Shown here in pieces: positions 3,429 to 34,576 of a stretch of 64,000 nucleotides of DNA. The DNA comes from Shigella phage vb_GEC_SH_GT. Position 1 is the first letter of the stretch, and every line of letters starts with the position of its first letter. The notes beneath the pieces are model-generated. The model saw only the letters and a list, made by a program, of their open reading frames with translations, made no database searches and was not told where the DNA came from. The stretch lies in sequence record OR887633; one strand, 5' to 3'. Both the position numbers and the translations under genes were made by a program.

Positions 3429-5242
3429 TGGTGTTTAACCCTATGCATGATTTCTTTATTTTTGCCAAGATTAAATCCGCGCTCGTTCGGATTTCCTAAA
3501 TAGCCGCATGTTCTTCTTATGGTGTTCATCTTTTTAGGATCATTTTCTCCACAAATAGAACAAACAAATCCGTTTTCAGTAGGAGTCATTTCATGGGTAC
3601 TTCCACACGTAAAACATTTATCTACTGGCATATTAACACCAAAATAATCTAAATGTTGTGCAGCATAATCCCATACAGCCTCAAGACCTTTTAGGTTATT
3701 TTTCATATCAGGAAGTTCAACATAAGAAATGTGACCACCTGTCGCAATGAAATGATACGGAGCTTCGCGAGAAATCTTTTCAAACGGAGTAATATTTTCT
3801 TCTACTGAAACGTGGAAACTGTTAGTGTACCAGCCTTTATCGGTAACATCTTTTACACTTCCATATTTTTCGGTATCAAGTTTACAGAAGCGATAGCACA
3901 GGTTTTCAGCAGGAGTAGAATACAAACTAAAAGCAAAACCGGTTCTTTCAGTCCACTGCTTAAGACGAGCATTCATTTTAGTCAAAATTTCCTGTCCAAT
4001 ATCACGACCGACAAGAATATTCAATTCGTGAATACCAATGTATCCTAGGGATACTGAACTTCTACCGTTTTTAAATAACTCAATTATATCGTCATCAGGT
4101 TTAAGACGGACCCCGAATGCACCTTCTTGGTAAAGAATAGGAGCAACAGTAGCTTTAACTCCTTTTAAGGAACTAATTCTACACATCAAAGCTTCAAAAC
4201 ATAAATCCATTCGTTCATTGAACAATTCGGCAAATTTCTGTTCATTGAACTGTGTTCCAATATAAGAATCTAATGCAATACGAGGAAGATTCAGTGTTAC
4301 AACACCAAGATTATTACGTCCATCAAGAATTTCATTACCAGTCGAATCTTTCCATACGCCCAAGAAACTACGGCAACCCATTGGAGAAACAGGAATAGAT
4401 GAACCAGTGATAGCTTTATTGTTCTTAGCCGAAATGATGTCAGGATACATTCTTTTGCTTGCACACTCTAGAGCAAGCTGCTTAATATCATAGTTCGGAT
4501 CGTCTTTATAAAGATTAACACCTTCTTCAACGAACATAACAAGTTTAGGGAAAATAGGAGTTATCCCGTCACGACCAAGACCTTTAATACGATTTTTCAG
4601 AATTGCTTTCTGAATCATTCGTTCAGTCCAGTCAGTTCCCGTACCAAATGTAATTGTTACAAAAGGCGTTTGTCCGTTTGAACTAAAGAGAGTATTTACT
4701 TCATATTCATAAGCTTGGAACGCATCGTATACGTCTTTTTCTGTTTTAGACTGGGCGTAATTCAACGCATCAGCGATTTGCCATTTTTCTGCATCCTCAA
4801 TATGTTTTGCATAGGTGCGTTTAACATAAGGAGAAAGTACTTTGTCTACATTCGCAAAAGTCGTTCCACCGTATTGATGGGAAGCAACCTGTGCAGTAAT
4901 TTGTGCCATAATTGCAGTAGCAACGCCAATTGATTTAGGGGTTTCAATCTGTGCATTACCAAGCTTAAACCCGTTCTCAAGCATTCCTTTTAAATCTACT
5001 AAACAGCAATTAGTAAATGGAAGAGCAGGGGAATAATCAATATCATGGAAATGAATAATTCCGCTTTCATGCGCTTTCATAATAAAAGACGGGACCATAT
5101 TTTTGGCAATGTGTTTAGACACAATACCAGCCATAAGGTCCCGTTGAGTTGGAAAAACACGAGAATCTTTATTAGCATTCTCGTTTAAAAGGTCTTTATT
5201 AGTTTTATGAATCAATCCTTCAATTTCTTTTTCAATTGTCAT
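3425..5242 (-). CDS. nrdD: Anaerobic ribonucleoside-triphosphate reductase (class III), uninterrupted
   Basis: 605 aa; C-terminal glycyl-radical motif RRTCGYLG and Cys zinc ribbon; continuous ORF. Confidence 0.92.
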   Translation of the reverse strand: MTIEKEIEGLIHKTNKDLLNENANKDSRVFPTQRDLMAGIVSKHIAKNMVPSFIMKAHESGIIHFHDIDYSPALPFTNCCLVDLKGMLENGFKLGNAQIETPKSIGVATAIMAQITAQVASHQYGGTTFANVDKVLSPYVKRTYAKHIEDAEKWQIADALNYAQSKTEKDVYDAFQAYEYEVNTLFSSNGQTPFVTITFGTGTDWTERMIQKAILKNRIKGLGRDGITPIFPKLVMFVEEGVNLYKDDPNYDIKQLALECASKRMYPDIISAKNNKAITGSSIPVSPMGCRSFLGVWKDSTGNEILDGRNNLGVVTLNLPRIALDSYIGTQFNEQKFAELFNERMDLCFEALMCRISSLKGVKATVAPILYQEGAFGVRLKPDDDIIELFKNGRSSVSLGYIGIHELNILVGRDIGQEILTKMNARLKQWTERTGFAFSLYSTPAENLCYRFCKLDTEKYGSVKDVTDKGWYTNSFHVSVEENITPFEKISREAPYHFIATGGHISYVELPDMKNNLKGLEAVWDYAAQHLDYFGVNMPVDKCFTCGSTHEMTPTENGFVCSICGENDPKKMNTIRRTCGYLGNPNERGFNLGKNKEIMHRVKHQ

Positions 5243-17300: not shown

Positions 17301-17332
17301 TTGACAAGATTATGGTATAGTAATCTTGTCAA
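17301..17332. repeat. Perfect 12-bp inverted repeat with 8-bp spacer
   Basis: ttgacaagatta-tggtatag-taatcttgtcaa in an intergenic gap. Confidence 0.8.
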
Positions 17333-17343
17333 CTTGTAAACCA

Positions 17344-17517
17344 TTAAATGACGTTTTCAATAAAATTTTGAAGCTTTGTGTGAGCATCAACCATGATTTT
17401 CATTTCTTCTTTGGCGAAAGCTGTACCTCTTTCCCGAGCAGAATACTCATAGTCAGAAACTGCATTAGCATATTCTTCAATTAGCTTCATTAAAAACATC
17501 TGCTTTTCAGTTTTCAT
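17344..17517 (-). CDS. Small protein (57 aa, below the ORF-track cutoff), paralog-family-like
   Basis: Hand translation MKTEKQMFLMKLIEEYANAVSDYEYSARERG...; fills the gap. Confidence 0.4.
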   Translation of the reverse strand: MKTEKQMFLMKLIEEYANAVSDYEYSARERGTAFAKEEMKIMVDAHTKLQNFIENVI

Positions 17518-24318: not shown

Positions 24319-24792
24319 TTATTTGAATGATTTGACGTACTGAATAGAACCTTTACTATTCACGAAAGCGATTTTACCATTTTTATTATACATGGTAGCA
24401 GTACGCTGATAGCCATAAGTTTGTTTACCAGATTGATAACCAACTAATGCGAAATTATCTTCACCCATTTTATTCTGTTTAGAGCGAATACGTTCATGAC
24501 CGTGTGCCATAAGAACCTTAGCATCACCAGTTGAAATTGATCTACGAGTTTTTTCATCTTCAACTGTATTAACAAAGTCGTCAAATGAATCAAATTTAGC
24601 ATGGGATTTATTATACAGTTTTCCATCTACTGCATAATTATATCCCTGTACATCCATCTCAACTTCTGTACCATCATCCAATACAGCAGTAATTTTTTGA
24701 CCTTTTTTAAATTTCAAAAGATCAGTAAAAGATTCAGCAATAATTTGAGAATTAATAGCTGCTTCAGTGATAAATTCTTGATATGTTTTCAT
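24319..24792 (-). CDS. Internal-protein-like head protein with capsid-targeting leader
   Basis: Starts MKTYQEFITEA, the T4 internal-protein leader cleaved by gp21; 157 aa. Confidence 0.7.
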   Translation of the reverse strand: MKTYQEFITEAAINSQIIAESFTDLLKFKKGQKITAVLDDGTEVEMDVQGYNYAVDGKLYNKSHAKFDSFDDFVNTVEDEKTRRSISTGDAKVLMAHGHERIRSKQNKMGEDNFALVGYQSGKQTYGYQRTATMYNKNGKIAFVNSKGSIQYVKSFK

Positions 24793-25244: not shown

Positions 25245-25276
25245 TATAGTATCAAAACCCTTGGAGGAAGTAAACA
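25245..25276 (-). promoter_or_regulatory. T4-type early promoter for denV
   Basis: tgtatagtatc ... agtaaaca module. Confidence 0.5.
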
Positions 25277-25277
25277 A

Positions 25278-26518
<1,241 letters not shown>

Positions 26519-30066: not shown

Positions 30067-30142
30067 TGGTCGAGGCAGTAGGGATCGAACCTACGACCCA
30101 GGACTTAGAAGGTCCTTGCTCTTCCTTCTGAGCTATGCCTCG
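30067..30142 (-). tRNA. tRNA-Arg (anticodon UCU)
   Basis: Revcomp folds as a cloverleaf: acceptor CGAGGCA/TGCCTCG, anticodon loop CTTCTAA, T-loop TTCGATC, CCA encoded. Confidence 0.8.
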
Positions 30143-30146
30143 TATT

Positions 30147-30221
30147 TGGCGGACGTGATAGGATTCGAACCTATAACCAATCGCTTAACAGGCGATCGCT
30201 CTGCCATTGAGCTACACATCC
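30147..30221 (-). tRNA. tRNA-Asn (anticodon GUU)
   Basis: Acceptor GGATGTG/CACGTCC, anticodon stem ATCGC/GCGAT, loop CTGTTAA, T-loop TTCGAAT, CCA encoded. Confidence 0.7.
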
Positions 30222-30225
30222 AAAT

Positions 30226-30312
30226 TGGTGGGGAGTGATGGAGTCGAACCACCCGAGTCGCAATGACAATGGATTTACAGTCCACACCGCTACCTCTACG
30301 GGATAACTCCCC
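30226..30312 (-). tRNA. Type-II tRNA, probably tRNA-Tyr (anticodon GUA)
   Basis: Acceptor GGGGAGT/ACTCCCC, anticodon loop CTGTAAA, long variable arm; D-arm pairing irregular. Confidence 0.55.
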
Positions 30313-30321
30313 AAATTAATT

Positions 30322-30396
30322 TGGTGGCCCTGGGTGGAATTGAACCACCATCTGGCGATTATGAGTCGCTTGCTTGAACCTTCCAGCTACAGGGCC
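30322..30396 (-). tRNA. tRNA with CAU anticodon (Met, or Ile if lysidine-modified)
   Basis: Acceptor GGCCCTG/CAGGGCC, anticodon loop CTCATAA, T-loop TTCAATT. Confidence 0.75.
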
Positions 30397-30397
30397 T

Positions 30398-30473
30398 TGG
30401 TGCTGATTGACGGAATCGAACCGCCGACGTCCTCATTACAAGTGAGGTGCTCTACCTACTGAGCTAAATCAGC
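30398..30473 (-). tRNA. tRNA-Thr (anticodon UGU)
   Basis: Acceptor GCTGATT/AATCAGC, anticodon loop CTTGTAA, T-loop TTCGATT. Confidence 0.85.
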
Positions 30474-30478
30474 AAAAC

Positions 30479-30568
30479 TGGCGGAGGCGATAGGATTTGA
30501 ACCTATGAGTCGCCGGAGCGACTGCCGATTTTCAAGACCGGTGCATTAAACCACTCTGCCACGCCTCC
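30479..30568 (-). tRNA. tRNA-Ser (anticodon UGA), type II
   Basis: Acceptor GGAGGCG/CGCCTCC, anticodon loop CTTGAAA, long variable arm, T-loop TTCAAAT. Confidence 0.8.
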
Positions 30569-30570
30569 AG

Positions 30571-30644
30571 TCTCCGCGGCAGGATTTGAACCTGCGACAT
30601 TCTGCTCCCAAAGCAGACGCTCTACCAAACTGAGCTACACGGAG
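30571..30644 (-). tRNA. tRNA-Pro (anticodon UGG), CCA not encoded
   Basis: Acceptor CTCCGTG/CGCGGAG, anticodon loop TTTGGGA, T-loop TTCAAAT. Confidence 0.8.
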
Positions 30645-30654
30645 TAAATTAAAT

Positions 30655-30728
<74 letters not shown>

Positions 30729-30733
30729 AAATT

Positions 30734-30820
30734 TGGTGCGAGAAGTGGGACTCGAACCCACAAGGAAATCATTCCGCAGCATTTTAAGTGCTGTGCCTTT
30801 ACCAATTTGACCATTCTCGC
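30734..30820 (-). tRNA. tRNA-Leu (anticodon UAA), type II
   Basis: Acceptor GCGAGAA/TTCTCGC, anticodon stem CAGCA/TGCTG, loop CTTAAAA, long variable arm. Confidence 0.8.
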
Positions 30821-30826
30821 GCTATA

Positions 30827-31459
30827 TTATTTATTACGTGAAAAAGACTGTTCTATCAATTCTGGACACTTTCGTTCTATCCATTTTCTAGCTTTTTGTG
30901 GGCTTATACCTATTATTTTAGCAGCTTTACTAACCCATCCAAATTTAGAATAATCGATTTTAACTAATTCTTCGTAAATTTCATCAGTTAAAATCTTTTC
31001 ATTAATATTTACCAGTAAATGATATAATTTATTATCATTAGCAATTTTAATGAATCTTTTATAGTTTCCGCCTTTACTTAAACCTAATGAAGTAATTGCA
31101 GATGATATAGTAGCTGAATTTAATAGTGCGTTTAAAATTTCTTCATCACTAACATTATAACGCTTTTTATTATTTTTAATATTTTTACCAGCAAAAGTAT
31201 CAGTTTGCGAATGGCAATTTGGACATAATAATCTTAAATTTGATTTAAGATGATTTTTATTATTTCCATCAATGTGGTCTAATTGCAGAACAATATGCTT
31301 ATTTTGCCATTTTGAAATTTTACAAATTGCACACTCATATGGAAAAATATTTTCTTTTATTATTTTGTCTTTCAGCTTTCCTGTACTAAAATTTGGATGT
31401 TTTCCTTCAAAAATTTCAGCTAATTTAGTATCCATAATATAATTCCCAATTATTAACAA
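30827..31459 (-). CDS. HNH endonuclease (putative homing endonuclease) flanking the tRNA cluster
   Basis: 210 aa; HIDGNNKNHLKSNLRLLCPNCH HNH motif with Cys pairs. Confidence 0.75.
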   Translation of the reverse strand: MLIIGNYIMDTKLAEIFEGKHPNFSTGKLKDKIIKENIFPYECAICKISKWQNKHIVLQLDHIDGNNKNHLKSNLRLLCPNCHSQTDTFAGKNIKNNKKRYNVSDEEILNALLNSATISSAITSLGLSKGGNYKRFIKIANDNKLYHLLVNINEKILTDEIYEELVKIDYSKFGWVSKAAKIIGISPQKARKWIERKCPELIEQSFSRNK

Positions 31460-32246: not shown

Positions 32247-32432
32247 TTATTCACCTTTAGAAATTTTATCCATAACGATAGCGATTAAACCAATTAAAAA
32301 TGCTACTACAAGTGAAAACACATTTTCTGCTGTAGTTAATAATCCGCATATAAATCCAACAAACATTGAAAAACTAAAAGCGGAAGCAGAAATTGCAATA
32401 GCAACATTTCGAATTAATTCACAGCGTTTCAT
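32247..32432 (-). CDS. Small membrane protein
   Basis: Start at MKRCELIRN after the promoter; hydrophobic helices. Confidence 0.45.
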   Translation of the reverse strand: MKRCELIRNVAIAISASAFSFSMFVGFICGLLTTAENVFSLVVAFLIGLIAIVMDKISKGE

Positions 32433-32460
32433 TTTATTCTCCTCAGTAGTTGATAGGGTA

Positions 32461-32492
32461 ATAGTATCACTACTAAAACCCAATGTAAACAA
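32461..32492 (-). promoter_or_regulatory. T4-type early promoter (near-identical cassette copy 1)
   Basis: gtaatagtatcactac ... tgtaaaca; shares about 40 nt with two other copies. Confidence 0.55.
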
Positions 32493-32493
32493 T

Positions 32494-32718
32494 TTATTCA
32501 ACACCAGCAGCTTTCAAAAGTTTTTTAAGATTGGCAACACCTTGAGCAGAAAATGTGACCTTGCCACCTTTTTCACTGATAGAACCAACCAATTTAGCAA
32601 GTTTATCATTAGGAATTTTTTTAAAATCAGCCAATGTTCCATCAAAGGTTTTTGAAACAAAAGGCAGTTCATCTTCACGTCTTTTAGCTTCTACAATAAA
32701 TTCTTTAAATGTTTTCAT
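32494..32718 (-). CDS. Internal-protein-like head protein with capsid-targeting leader
   Basis: Start at MKTFKEFIVEAKRR...; 74 aa. Confidence 0.65.
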   Translation of the reverse strand: MKTFKEFIVEAKRREDELPFVSKTFDGTLADFKKIPNDKLAKLVGSISEKGGKVTFSAQGVANLKKLLKAAGVE

Positions 32719-32754
32719 TTTATTCTCCAATTTCACATTTGTTTTGATAGGGTA

Positions 32755-32786
32755 ATAGTATCACTACTAAAACCCTATGTAAACAA
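32755..32786 (-). promoter_or_regulatory. T4-type early promoter (cassette copy 2)
   Basis: gtaatagtatcactactaaaaccctatgtaaacaactttgtgaaa. Confidence 0.55.
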
Positions 32787-32802
32787 CTTTGTGAAATATT
32801 TA

Positions 32803-33093
32803 TTACAAAAGATTTTTAGCAATAATCTTGAGATGTGCCGCAGAAATGTGTTTAGCTTTAAACAACGCAGTTTCTTCAGCAGGAGAGATAACGATTGTAG
32901 CACCATCCTTTTTAGCAGACCACCCATCACCTAGGTAAACAGTACCTTTGATTTCTTCGCCATCAACCAGACTAATCATTGGTTTACCTTCTCGTCCTTT
33001 ATTTGCTTTAATAACTTCAGAAGTAAGAGTAGCTTCGGTAATGGTAGAAACCGGGGTAGTTGTAGTAGAAGTAAATTCTTTAAATGTTTTCAT
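32803..33093 (-). CDS. Internal-protein-like head protein with capsid-targeting leader
   Basis: Starts MKTFKEFTSTTTTPV...; 96 aa. Confidence 0.65.
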   Translation of the reverse strand: MKTFKEFTSTTTTPVSTITEATLTSEVIKANKGREGKPMISLVDGEEIKGTVYLGDGWSAKKDGATIVISPAEETALFKAKHISAAHLKIIAKNLL

Positions 33094-33123
33094 TTTATTT
33101 TCCTAATTAATTTTGATGAGGTA

Positions 33124-33154
33124 ATAGTATCACTACCTCATCAGTATGTAAACA
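33124..33154 (-). promoter_or_regulatory. T4-type early promoter (cassette copy 3)
   Basis: gtaatagtatcactacc ... tgtaaacaactttgtgaaa. Confidence 0.55.
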
Positions 33155-33165
33155 ACTTTGTGAAA

Positions 33166-33862
<697 letters not shown>

Positions 33863-33863
<1 letters not shown>

Positions 33864-34576
33864 TATAGTACCTTTAGTGTATTTTTAATTTTAGAAAAAA
33901 GTTCTTCAAGAGAACCATCGTTTGTAATTACTAAATCGCCATCACGAATTGGCAATCCAGCTTCTGTAATATGAGTATCATTGGATTTTTGACCAGGACG
34001 AACTACATGAATTACTGTAGCACCCATCGCCCTAGCCGCATCCATTTCATGATCTTGACGAGTATCAGGAACGATATAATAATCATAACCTGAGTTAAAT
34101 TTATCAAGATAATCTAAAGCAAATAATTTTACCCAATACATGCGGTCGAAGTTATTAACAATCAAATCCGTACCTAGGGCTTGCATCAGACGACGGACTG
34201 ACCATTGATCTTCAATATTATTTATAACGTCAGCAATCTTGTTAAATGCTACGAAATTAACTGCGTCATCAAAAACAAACACACCCTTAATTGGGCTTTT
34301 ACCGTTAAGATAGCAAAATGCTTGTTCCATAATCGTGATTACTTCTGATTTAGTCAGATTTAAATTAGTCTCACGATCATAGTCAATTCCTTCAAACTCT
34401 TTACGAGTTAAGCAAGGATAGTCAGTGTTTGCTGCAAATACACCCCATGCATAAGCCAATGCATCCTTAATAGGACCAGCAAGTTGATATTTAACTGCAG
34501 AATAATTATTCATGATAAAATCTGCAGTAGTATCTTTTCCACTACGCTTTACACCACTTAAAAAGATTAGTTTCAT
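33863..34576 (-). CDS. 1: Deoxynucleoside monophosphate kinase
   Basis: 237 aa; P-loop GVKRSGKDT; matches recalled T4 gp1. Confidence 0.88.

Follow-up and report, generated by a model that had tools for sequence, protein, structure and literature searches.

A known type of internal-protein cassette locus, carrying ipI and ip8, in a T4-like Shigella phage

The 64,000-nucleotide stretch of Shigella phage vb_GEC_SH_GT DNA (sequence record OR887633) that we analyzed, hereafter the window, very probably contains the ipI-side internal-protein (IP) locus of a Tequatrovirus (T4-like phage), which lies between 57B and trna.4 and holds two IP cassettes, ipI and ip8; our high confidence applies to this explanation as a whole, including exchange of the cassettes through the homologous elements that flank them. 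The assignment is made because gene order and megablast matches both agree with T4. The genes run 1-57A-57B-ipI-(ip8)-trna.4-trna.3-trna.2-tRNAs, which is the order found in T4 (annotated there as trna.2, trna.3, trna.4, ipI, 57B, 57A, 1, 3), at 96–98% nucleotide identity, and megablast returned 642 phage records, nearly all of them Escherichia, Shigella or Yersinia T-even phages. The T4 genome matches the window at 98% but lacks approximately 300 bp of its sequence. Among the 40 records listed by megablast the IPI-Ip8 pair was covered to 87% at best, and each of its junctions is present elsewhere (T4; CM8/T4_ev240).

All features of the locus lie on the minus strand. Gene 1 (33863-34576) and 57A (33621-33863; Pfam GP57) are followed by 57B (33166-33621), an Acb1 family gene (Pfam PF23474, 2.6e-60) that is 100% identical to T4 57B and forms the conserved upstream flank of the array. 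The conserved downstream flank is trna.4 (32247-32432), whose 61-residue hydrophobic product (GRAVY 1.22; phrog_1692) has no match in PADLOC or Pfam and shares every residue (100% identity) with T4 Trna.4, for which the annotation predicts a membrane protein; the original prediction also called the small gene below the IP genes a membrane gene. Beyond trna.4 lie two more small ORFs and then the tRNA cluster. The interval between 57B and trna.4, where both IP genes sit, is one of two IP loci, the other being near denV/e.

The first cassette encodes IPI itself. The 96-residue ORF at 32803-33093(-), which begins MKTFKEFTSTTTT, matches Pfam PF11634 (IPI_T4) at 7.5e-54 (180.1 bits; cut-off 25). Its product shares 99% identity with T4 IpI and has a single additional Thr in its leader. 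Residues 21–96, the mature protein IPI*, are identical at 76 of 76 positions to chain A of PDB 2JUB, the solved structure of T4 IPI*, a GmrSD inhibitor. Residues 1–20 (33034-33093) form the leader, which ends in I18-T19-E20|A21, and the solved mature protein starts exactly at A21, directly after I-T-E, so that it fits the gp21 rule of cleavage after L/I-x-E. Packaging in the head, processing and injection with the DNA are established for T4 IPI, to which the window's mature sequence is identical. The target of IPI*, GmrSD, is one of the type IV restriction enzymes and acts against DNA containing glucosyl-hmC. IPI* is an injected inhibitor of this enzyme (PMC3012670), and each of the proteins Ip1, Ip2 and Ip3 blocks a GmrSD variant of its own (PMC12373910).

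The second cassette encodes a 74-residue protein, Ip8, from the ORF at 32494-32718(-), which begins MKTFKEFIVEAK and carries its leader, MKTFKEFIVE, at 32689-32718. Both proteins start with MKTFKEF and have Phe at positions 4 and 7, in keeping with the capsid-targeting leader (CTS) of T-even phages (MKTYQEFIAE-like, with aromatic residues at 4 and 7). Positions 4 and 7 of IPIII are important for targeting, and positions 8 and 10 for processing; gp21 cuts after L/I-x-E, and the IP criterion is that this motif closes a propeptide of 10–19 residues (PMC9026906). Ip8 has Ile at position 8 and Glu at position 10, giving a predicted cleavage at I8-V9-E10|A11, and the motif is thus present at the propeptide end of both IPI and Ip8. 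In T4 the CTS brings proteins to the prohead core and is then cut off by gp21, and about 360 copies per head are injected (PMC3012670, PMC9026906). These features support the view that both ORFs encode T-even internal proteins with capsid-targeting leaders and putative gp21-type L/I-x-E sites, as the MKTFKEF leader had led the original prediction to propose; the Pfam and PDB matches of IPI and the PHROG and RefSeq matches of Ip8 point the same way.

Ip8 matches phrog_8765 ("internal virion protein") at 1.8e-24, and a protein with 97% identity is noted in RefSeq as "Ip8" in phage CM8; the family is labeled Ip8 in phages VR5 and CM8 and Ip9 in IME08. By tblastn it is present in at least 107 phage records at 70–97% identity, in phages of Escherichia, Klebsiella, Shigella, Salmonella, Citrobacter and Yersinia. 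The suggestion that the locus carries novel cargo was therefore not upheld, since the 96-residue ORF is IPI, the very precedent on which that suggestion drew, and the 74-residue ORF belongs to a named family, Ip8/Ip9, found in at least 107 phage genomes. The predicted mature Ip8 would be a basic protein of 64 residues (6.9 kDa, pI 9.8) with no detectable similarity to mature IPI. Its ORF does not match PF11634, and searches of Pfam, PDB and PADLOC returned no match; a collection of 5.8 billion proteins holds only 12 Ip8 clusters. An AlphaFold2 model built on an 11-sequence alignment reached a moderate pLDDT of 68 and places a beta-alpha-beta-beta-alpha arrangement after the leader. Foldseek comparison of this model with PDB yielded nothing with E <= 0.001, and its matches in BFVD are solely other T4-like internal head proteins. 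A likeness to KH domains, considered on the basis of PNPase regions (the best Foldseek matches, E 0.07) and PNO1 (phmmer, E 0.06), was set aside as too weak. Our literature search found no mention of Ip8.

Each of the two IP genes, and trna.4 as well, is preceded by a copy of the same repeated block. A repeat search identified one family (D1) of three 61-nt copies that are 77–84% identical to the reference copy: block 1, 5' of ipI (33106-33166; promoter 33152-33124), block 2, 5' of ip8 (32737-32797; promoter 32783-32755), and block 3, 5' of trna.4 (32443-32503; promoter 32489-32461). A promoter scan placed TTTACA-N17-TACTAT, with TG upstream of the -10, on the minus strand of all three, so that the near-identical promoter blocks described earlier ahead of the two IP genes and the small membrane gene are indeed present at those positions. 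In the alignment the blocks are invariant from TTGTTTACAT via GTAGTGATACTATTACC to ATCAA, followed by GGA.AATAAAATGAAA, and they remain alike across the Shine-Dalgarno sequence and the ATG and into the first codons of the leader. When the ipI and ip8 junctions are aligned from the upstream stop to codon 7, 82 of 106 positions agree. Block 1 is identical to the block 5' of T4 ipI. The 16-mer core TAGTGATACTATTACC, with up to two mismatches, occurs three times in the 64-kb window against 0.05 expected, and none of 100 shuffles reached three occurrences. A loose T4 early-promoter pattern is found 12 times in the window, and what the other early-type promoters have in common with the blocks is limited to the hexamers and the +1 region. 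The likeness of the blocks thus exceeds the generic T4 early-promoter consensus. When IMG/VR was scanned for the exact block core, 49 stretches were found, with promoter context at only five sites, all of them at the IP locus; the other 16-mer matches, which lack promoter context, were dismissed as chance.

From their sequence, the blocks are probably active early promoters. A late-type TATAAATA is located at 34219-34226(-), inside gene 1 and upstream of 57A, and read-through from this site may supply IPs late for head assembly. The ip genes go unmentioned in the time-resolved omics paper on T4.

In every block a hairpin spans the spacer, the -10 and the bases just downstream (33143-33114 in block 1, 32481-32456 in block 3; in block 2 the core, 32778-32747, reads ATAGGGT..TAGTA-GTGA-TACTA..ACCCTAT). 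The original prediction's description of the blocks did not include this hairpin. Fold energies are -17.4 kcal/mol for the ipI block, -18.9 for the ip8 block and -11.7 for the trna.4 block, and on the 38-nt core the corresponding z values are -7.1, -6.4 and -4.7, with none of 300 shuffles as stable; these values vary with the test, from -4.2 to -7.1 for the ipI block and from -4.8 to -6.4 for the ip8 block. Two geometries are present, a 13-bp stem closed over the -10 in the ipI block and a 7+5-bp stem with a 2x2 internal loop in the ip8 and trna.4 blocks. Only four of 18 promoter-like sites in the window have a strong hairpin over the -10, namely the three blocks and an unrelated site at 17312-17341. 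We also examined covariation in an ungapped alignment of 31 distinct blocks. Both fixed hairpin registers beat every slid register, and neither rose above the column-shuffle control (66.5% paired versus 65.4%, 82/500, for one register and 58.3% versus 58.5% for the second), so we make no claim of selection for pairing. Because a transcript from a block's own promoter would lack the 5' arm, any RNA-level role of the hairpin would be limited to read-through RNA.

To place the window among its relatives, we compared 44 loci, comprising 36 from IMG/VR that were found via 57B and eight annotated phage records. In each locus 57B and trna.4 were located, the ORFs between them with a CTS-like start were listed, and families were called after removal of the leader. 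The interval from 57B to trna.4 ranges from 83 to 1667 bp and contains 0–4 leader-bearing ORFs, which represent 18 sequence families. Nine arrangements occur among phages whose flanks are identical or nearly so (99–100% to the window's 57B and Trna.4 in the first seven, for which identity was computed): IPI (T4); IPI-Ip8 (window); IPI-A77 (teqdroes, 303Ecol101PP); Ip5-A77; E102; A77; Ip5-IPI-Ip8 (CM8, T4_ev240); IPI-B90-E102-Ip8 (UFV-AREG1); and B90-E102-Ip8 (G4498). These data support the conclusion that the locus behaves as a cassette-exchange locus. The original prediction had read the repeated blocks in this way and had named a locus identical in all relatives as the contrary outcome; across the 44 loci such uniformity is clearly absent, and with 0–4 cassettes, 18 families and breakpoints inside the block or leader, the cassette reading stands.

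The breakpoints can be followed at the nucleotide level. The single ipI-trna.4 junction of T4 joins pieces of two window blocks exactly: up to and including TTTACATAGGG it is identical to the window's ip8 block, and from CAACTACTGAGGAG onward to the window's trna.4 block. By its sequence this is the product that would be expected of a crossover between two direct repeats, or of the reverse insertion. Comparison with teqdroes, which carries another second cassette, shows approximately 97–100% identity via the ipI end, the block, the Shine-Dalgarno region and leader codons 1–11, then a drop to 35–45% over the mature-protein region, and renewed identity at GTAGTGATACTATTACCCTATCAA in the -10/hairpin core of the next block. 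Chimeric blocks that join the left hairpin arm of one type to the right arm of another also occur in relatives (T4_ev240 at 1153, and two further loci, L026 at 3969 and L019 at 4343). On the strength of the T4, teqdroes and chimeric-block breakpoints, the mature-protein coding part is the exchange unit, for which the leader/CTS and the promoter-hairpin block would serve as homology arms. Comparative breakpoints of this kind locate the exchange and are compatible with either general homologous recombination or a targeted mechanism.

In the mechanism we propose, a cassette consists of a T4 early-type promoter with its spacer/-10 segment in an inverted repeat, the conserved leader/Shine-Dalgarno segment, some 10–20 CTS codons, a variable mature region and the next block. 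The CTS would direct the IP into the prohead core, where gp21 would cut after I-T-E (IPI) or I-V-E (Ip8), and the small basic mature proteins, present in a few hundred copies, would be injected along with the DNA. The repeated block and CTS codons, together about 60–100 bp, provide homology patches on either side of every cassette, and through them homologous recombination, whether inside one T-even genome or between genomes that co-infect a cell, could delete, insert or replace whole cassettes. Since the patches lie on both sides, each exchanged cassette would keep its promoter and targeting leader.

Three other explanations were weighed against exchange through homology. PeSL-like targeted mobilization would make the inverted repeat over the -10 a specific recombination site, either as a cruciform cut by a structure-specific nuclease or as a site bound by a dedicated protein, with cassettes moving as excised mini-circles. 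It would account for a hairpin that, among the early-type promoters of the window, is nearly specific to the three blocks (one unrelated site besides) and for the crossovers inside the loop/-10 core of the relatives' chimeric blocks, and it has an experimental counterpart in RB49/phi1, where PeSL mini-circles with the crossover in the loop were shown (PMC2839356). Crossovers also fall outside the hairpin, however, as the left boundary in teqdroes lies in CTS codons and the switch in CM8 lies downstream of the hairpin. Furthermore, the neighbors of the locus (57A, 57B, trna.2-4, tRNAs and an HNH homing endonuclease) include no recombinase or integrase gene, and the endonuclease, the only nuclease gene nearby, is about 1.4 kb away. 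As T4 recombination reportedly needs less than 50 bp of homology (PMC2839356), homology alone would be sufficient, and we regard targeted mobilization as unlikely.

Alternatively, the IP genes could be tandem paralogues that arose by local duplication and then diverged, leaving the blocks as remnants without a continuing role in exchange. A tandem array in one orientation, in which promoter, leader, Shine-Dalgarno region and CTS are common to both genes, has the appearance expected of such a history; yet the mature regions have no detectable similarity, the same families recur in differing combinations and orders between identical flanks and also in other genera, and identity changes abruptly at block boundaries, which argues for recent recombination rather than gradual divergence. 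We consider this history very improbable, and grant just as little probability to the notion that the blocks are ordinary promoters, alike through a long early consensus, in which the hairpin is an RNA-level element (terminator, attenuator or stabilizer) irrelevant to plasticity. Although 12 sites in the window do fit the loose early-promoter pattern, and the stem-loop of PeSLs acts as a terminator (PMC2839356), the window's other early-type promoters share neither spacer, hairpin nor leader with the blocks, and the boundaries of indels and replacements coincide with the blocks. Intrinsic terminators were ruled out here, as the three hairpins all lack a following U-tract and a terminator scan gave no match at them. 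Exchange of cassettes through their homologous flanks therefore remains our preferred explanation.

By analogy, Ip8 is probably packaged and injected like other IPs, and its most likely role, judged from Ip1/Ip2/Ip3, would be inhibition of another GmrSD-family variant or of another early-acting defense. Ip8 is present in at least 107 sequenced phages, and with Ip1-3 each paired with a GmrSD variant it is an obvious counter-defense candidate. A more far-reaching reading, in which Ip8 would inhibit a defense beyond those met by Ip1/Ip2/Ip3 (a further GmrSD subtype or another early-acting system) and the inverted repeat over the -10 would in addition be a dedicated recombination hotspot rather than mere homology, is quite unlikely in its two parts together; if the hotspot part were true, cassette traffic would be confined to the IP locus. 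The anti-CBASS gene acb1 (57B) directly adjoins the IP cassettes, and counter-defense genes are thus concentrated in a short stretch. As an example, the locus shows T4-like phages maintaining an exchangeable repertoire of injected proteins that counter restriction; its practical value is limited to the candidacy of Ip8 and the adjacency of acb1.

Several known systems invite comparison. The array resembles integron cassette arrays in its tandem small ORFs of the same orientation, in the imperfect inverted repeats between them and in a content that varies among close relatives. Unlike integrons, it has no attI/attC sites, each cassette has its own promoter in place of a common Pc, and exchange is explained by homology rather than by site-specific recombination; an integron-like system was ruled out for want of an integrase. 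Relative to the T4 IPI*/GmrSD pair (Bair 2007; Rifat 2008, PDB 2JUB), the window's mature IPI has the very sequence of the protein whose structure was solved and whose function was tested, whereas Ip8 shares with it the CTS, small size, basic charge and locus but has no sequence similarity or confident structural similarity to it.

The PeSLs of RB49/phi1, PST/T4 and nt-1/KVP40 (Arbiol 2010, PMC2839356; Comeau 2014, PMC4122927) are like the blocks in combining a promoter with a stem-loop between small non-essential ORFs of hyperplastic regions and in lying at indel/replacement boundaries, and the TTTACA-N17-TACTAT of the three blocks fits the promoter consensus of the PST/T4 elements, TTTACW-N17-TAYWAT (PMC4122927). 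PeSLs in the strict sense (Arbiol 2010) have a near-consensus sigma-70 promoter, TTGACA-N17-TATAAT, with which the T4 early-type sequence found here agrees at 9 of 12 positions, and a G(n)-loop-C(n) terminator stem upstream of the promoter, whereas here AT-rich or mixed stems overlap the spacer and -10 and lack a U-tract. Mini-circles have been shown for PeSLs and not for IP-locus elements. We tried the blocks as PeSLs proper and, given the want of a near-perfect sigma-70 -35 box, of an upstream G/C-run stem and of terminator function, classed them as IP-locus elements, which the PeSL authors themselves regard as analogues, not homologues, of PeSLs (PMC2839356, PMC4122927).

The closest counterpart is the set of PeSL-like sequences at two highly variable T-even IP loci reported by Repoila, Tetart, Bouet and Krisch in 1994 (EMBO J 13:4181), as cited in PMC2839356 and PMC4122927; Rao and Black 2010 (PMC3012670) and Silas et al. 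2025 (PMC12373910) cite the same paper for a diverse IP set defined by a shared leader. As these citing papers present them, the 1994 elements occupy the same locus (the ipI side, beside 57B) and accompany the same conserved N-terminal leader, with the same repeated T4 early-promoter element and AT-rich stem-loop 5' and 3' of the IP ORFs (three copies here), cassettes that likewise vary in number, order and identity, and the same proposed role in IP-gene shuffling and host range, leaving no substantive difference from the window in what is cited. The architecture set out in the original prediction had, on this account, already been described in 1994. The locus is real but already known: its principle, its elements and one of its two proteins are in the literature, and it was taken up again in the 2010 and 2014 papers on PeSLs.

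Gene 57B (33166-33621, minus strand) encodes a full-length Acb1 anti-CBASS phosphodiesterase (PF23474, 2.6e-60) and lies directly upstream of the internal-protein (IP) cassettes of the window, so that counter-defence genes are clustered here. The sole difference between the IPI protein of the window and T4 IpI is an additional Thr in the leader (33034-33093, minus strand), which contains four consecutive Thr residues compared with three in T4, while the mature protein is the same. The Shine-Dalgarno regions of trna.4 (32433-32447, minus strand) and ip8 (32719-32733, minus strand) both include GGAG, at which the T4 endoribonuclease RegB cleaves early mRNAs, whereas that of ipI reads GGAA. This difference in sequence suggests that post-transcriptional handling may vary among the cassettes.

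The window also carries a second internal-protein locus, comprising two further ORFs with a capsid-targeting sequence, both on the minus strand: one of 157 aa (24319-24792; DUF7412, phrog_3155) and one of 93 aa (25278-25559; phrog_3499). Neither has the hairpin-promoter block directly upstream, and a promoter-like site close to these ORFs (25246-25275) is without a hairpin (z = -0.13).

Among the related loci, chimeric promoter/hairpin blocks occur at 1153 in L040 (T4_ev240), at 3969 and 4302 in L026, and at 4343 and 4674 in L019 (positions on the gene strand after re-orientation, L040 being stored reverse-complemented). In each of these blocks the left arm is of one block type and the right arm of another, and the pairing between the two is imperfect; the blocks look like crossover footprints inside the loop/-10 core. 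In Shigella phage CM8 (NC_054939.1, 69561-72936), Ip5 and IpI are each annotated twice, and the doubled annotations flank a truncated 57B of 246 nt. This arrangement could reflect a local duplication or an artefact of assembly to which the repeated blocks gave rise.

ARAGORN identified nine tRNAs in the window (30067-30820) and did not find tRNA-Gln. In T4 and the related phage teqdroes, tRNA-Gln sits between tRNA-Leu and trna.2, the exact position occupied in the window by an HNH homing-endonuclease ORF (30827-31459, minus strand; phrog_14736, 5.5e-124). Elsewhere, within a run of small early-type ORFs, a perfect 14-bp hairpin overlaps a promoter-like site (17312-17341, minus strand; -17.9 kcal/mol, z = -7.9) just past the stop codon of a 57-aa ORF (17344-17517). 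This site may be an element of the promoter-early stem-loop (PeSL) type known from RB49/phi1.
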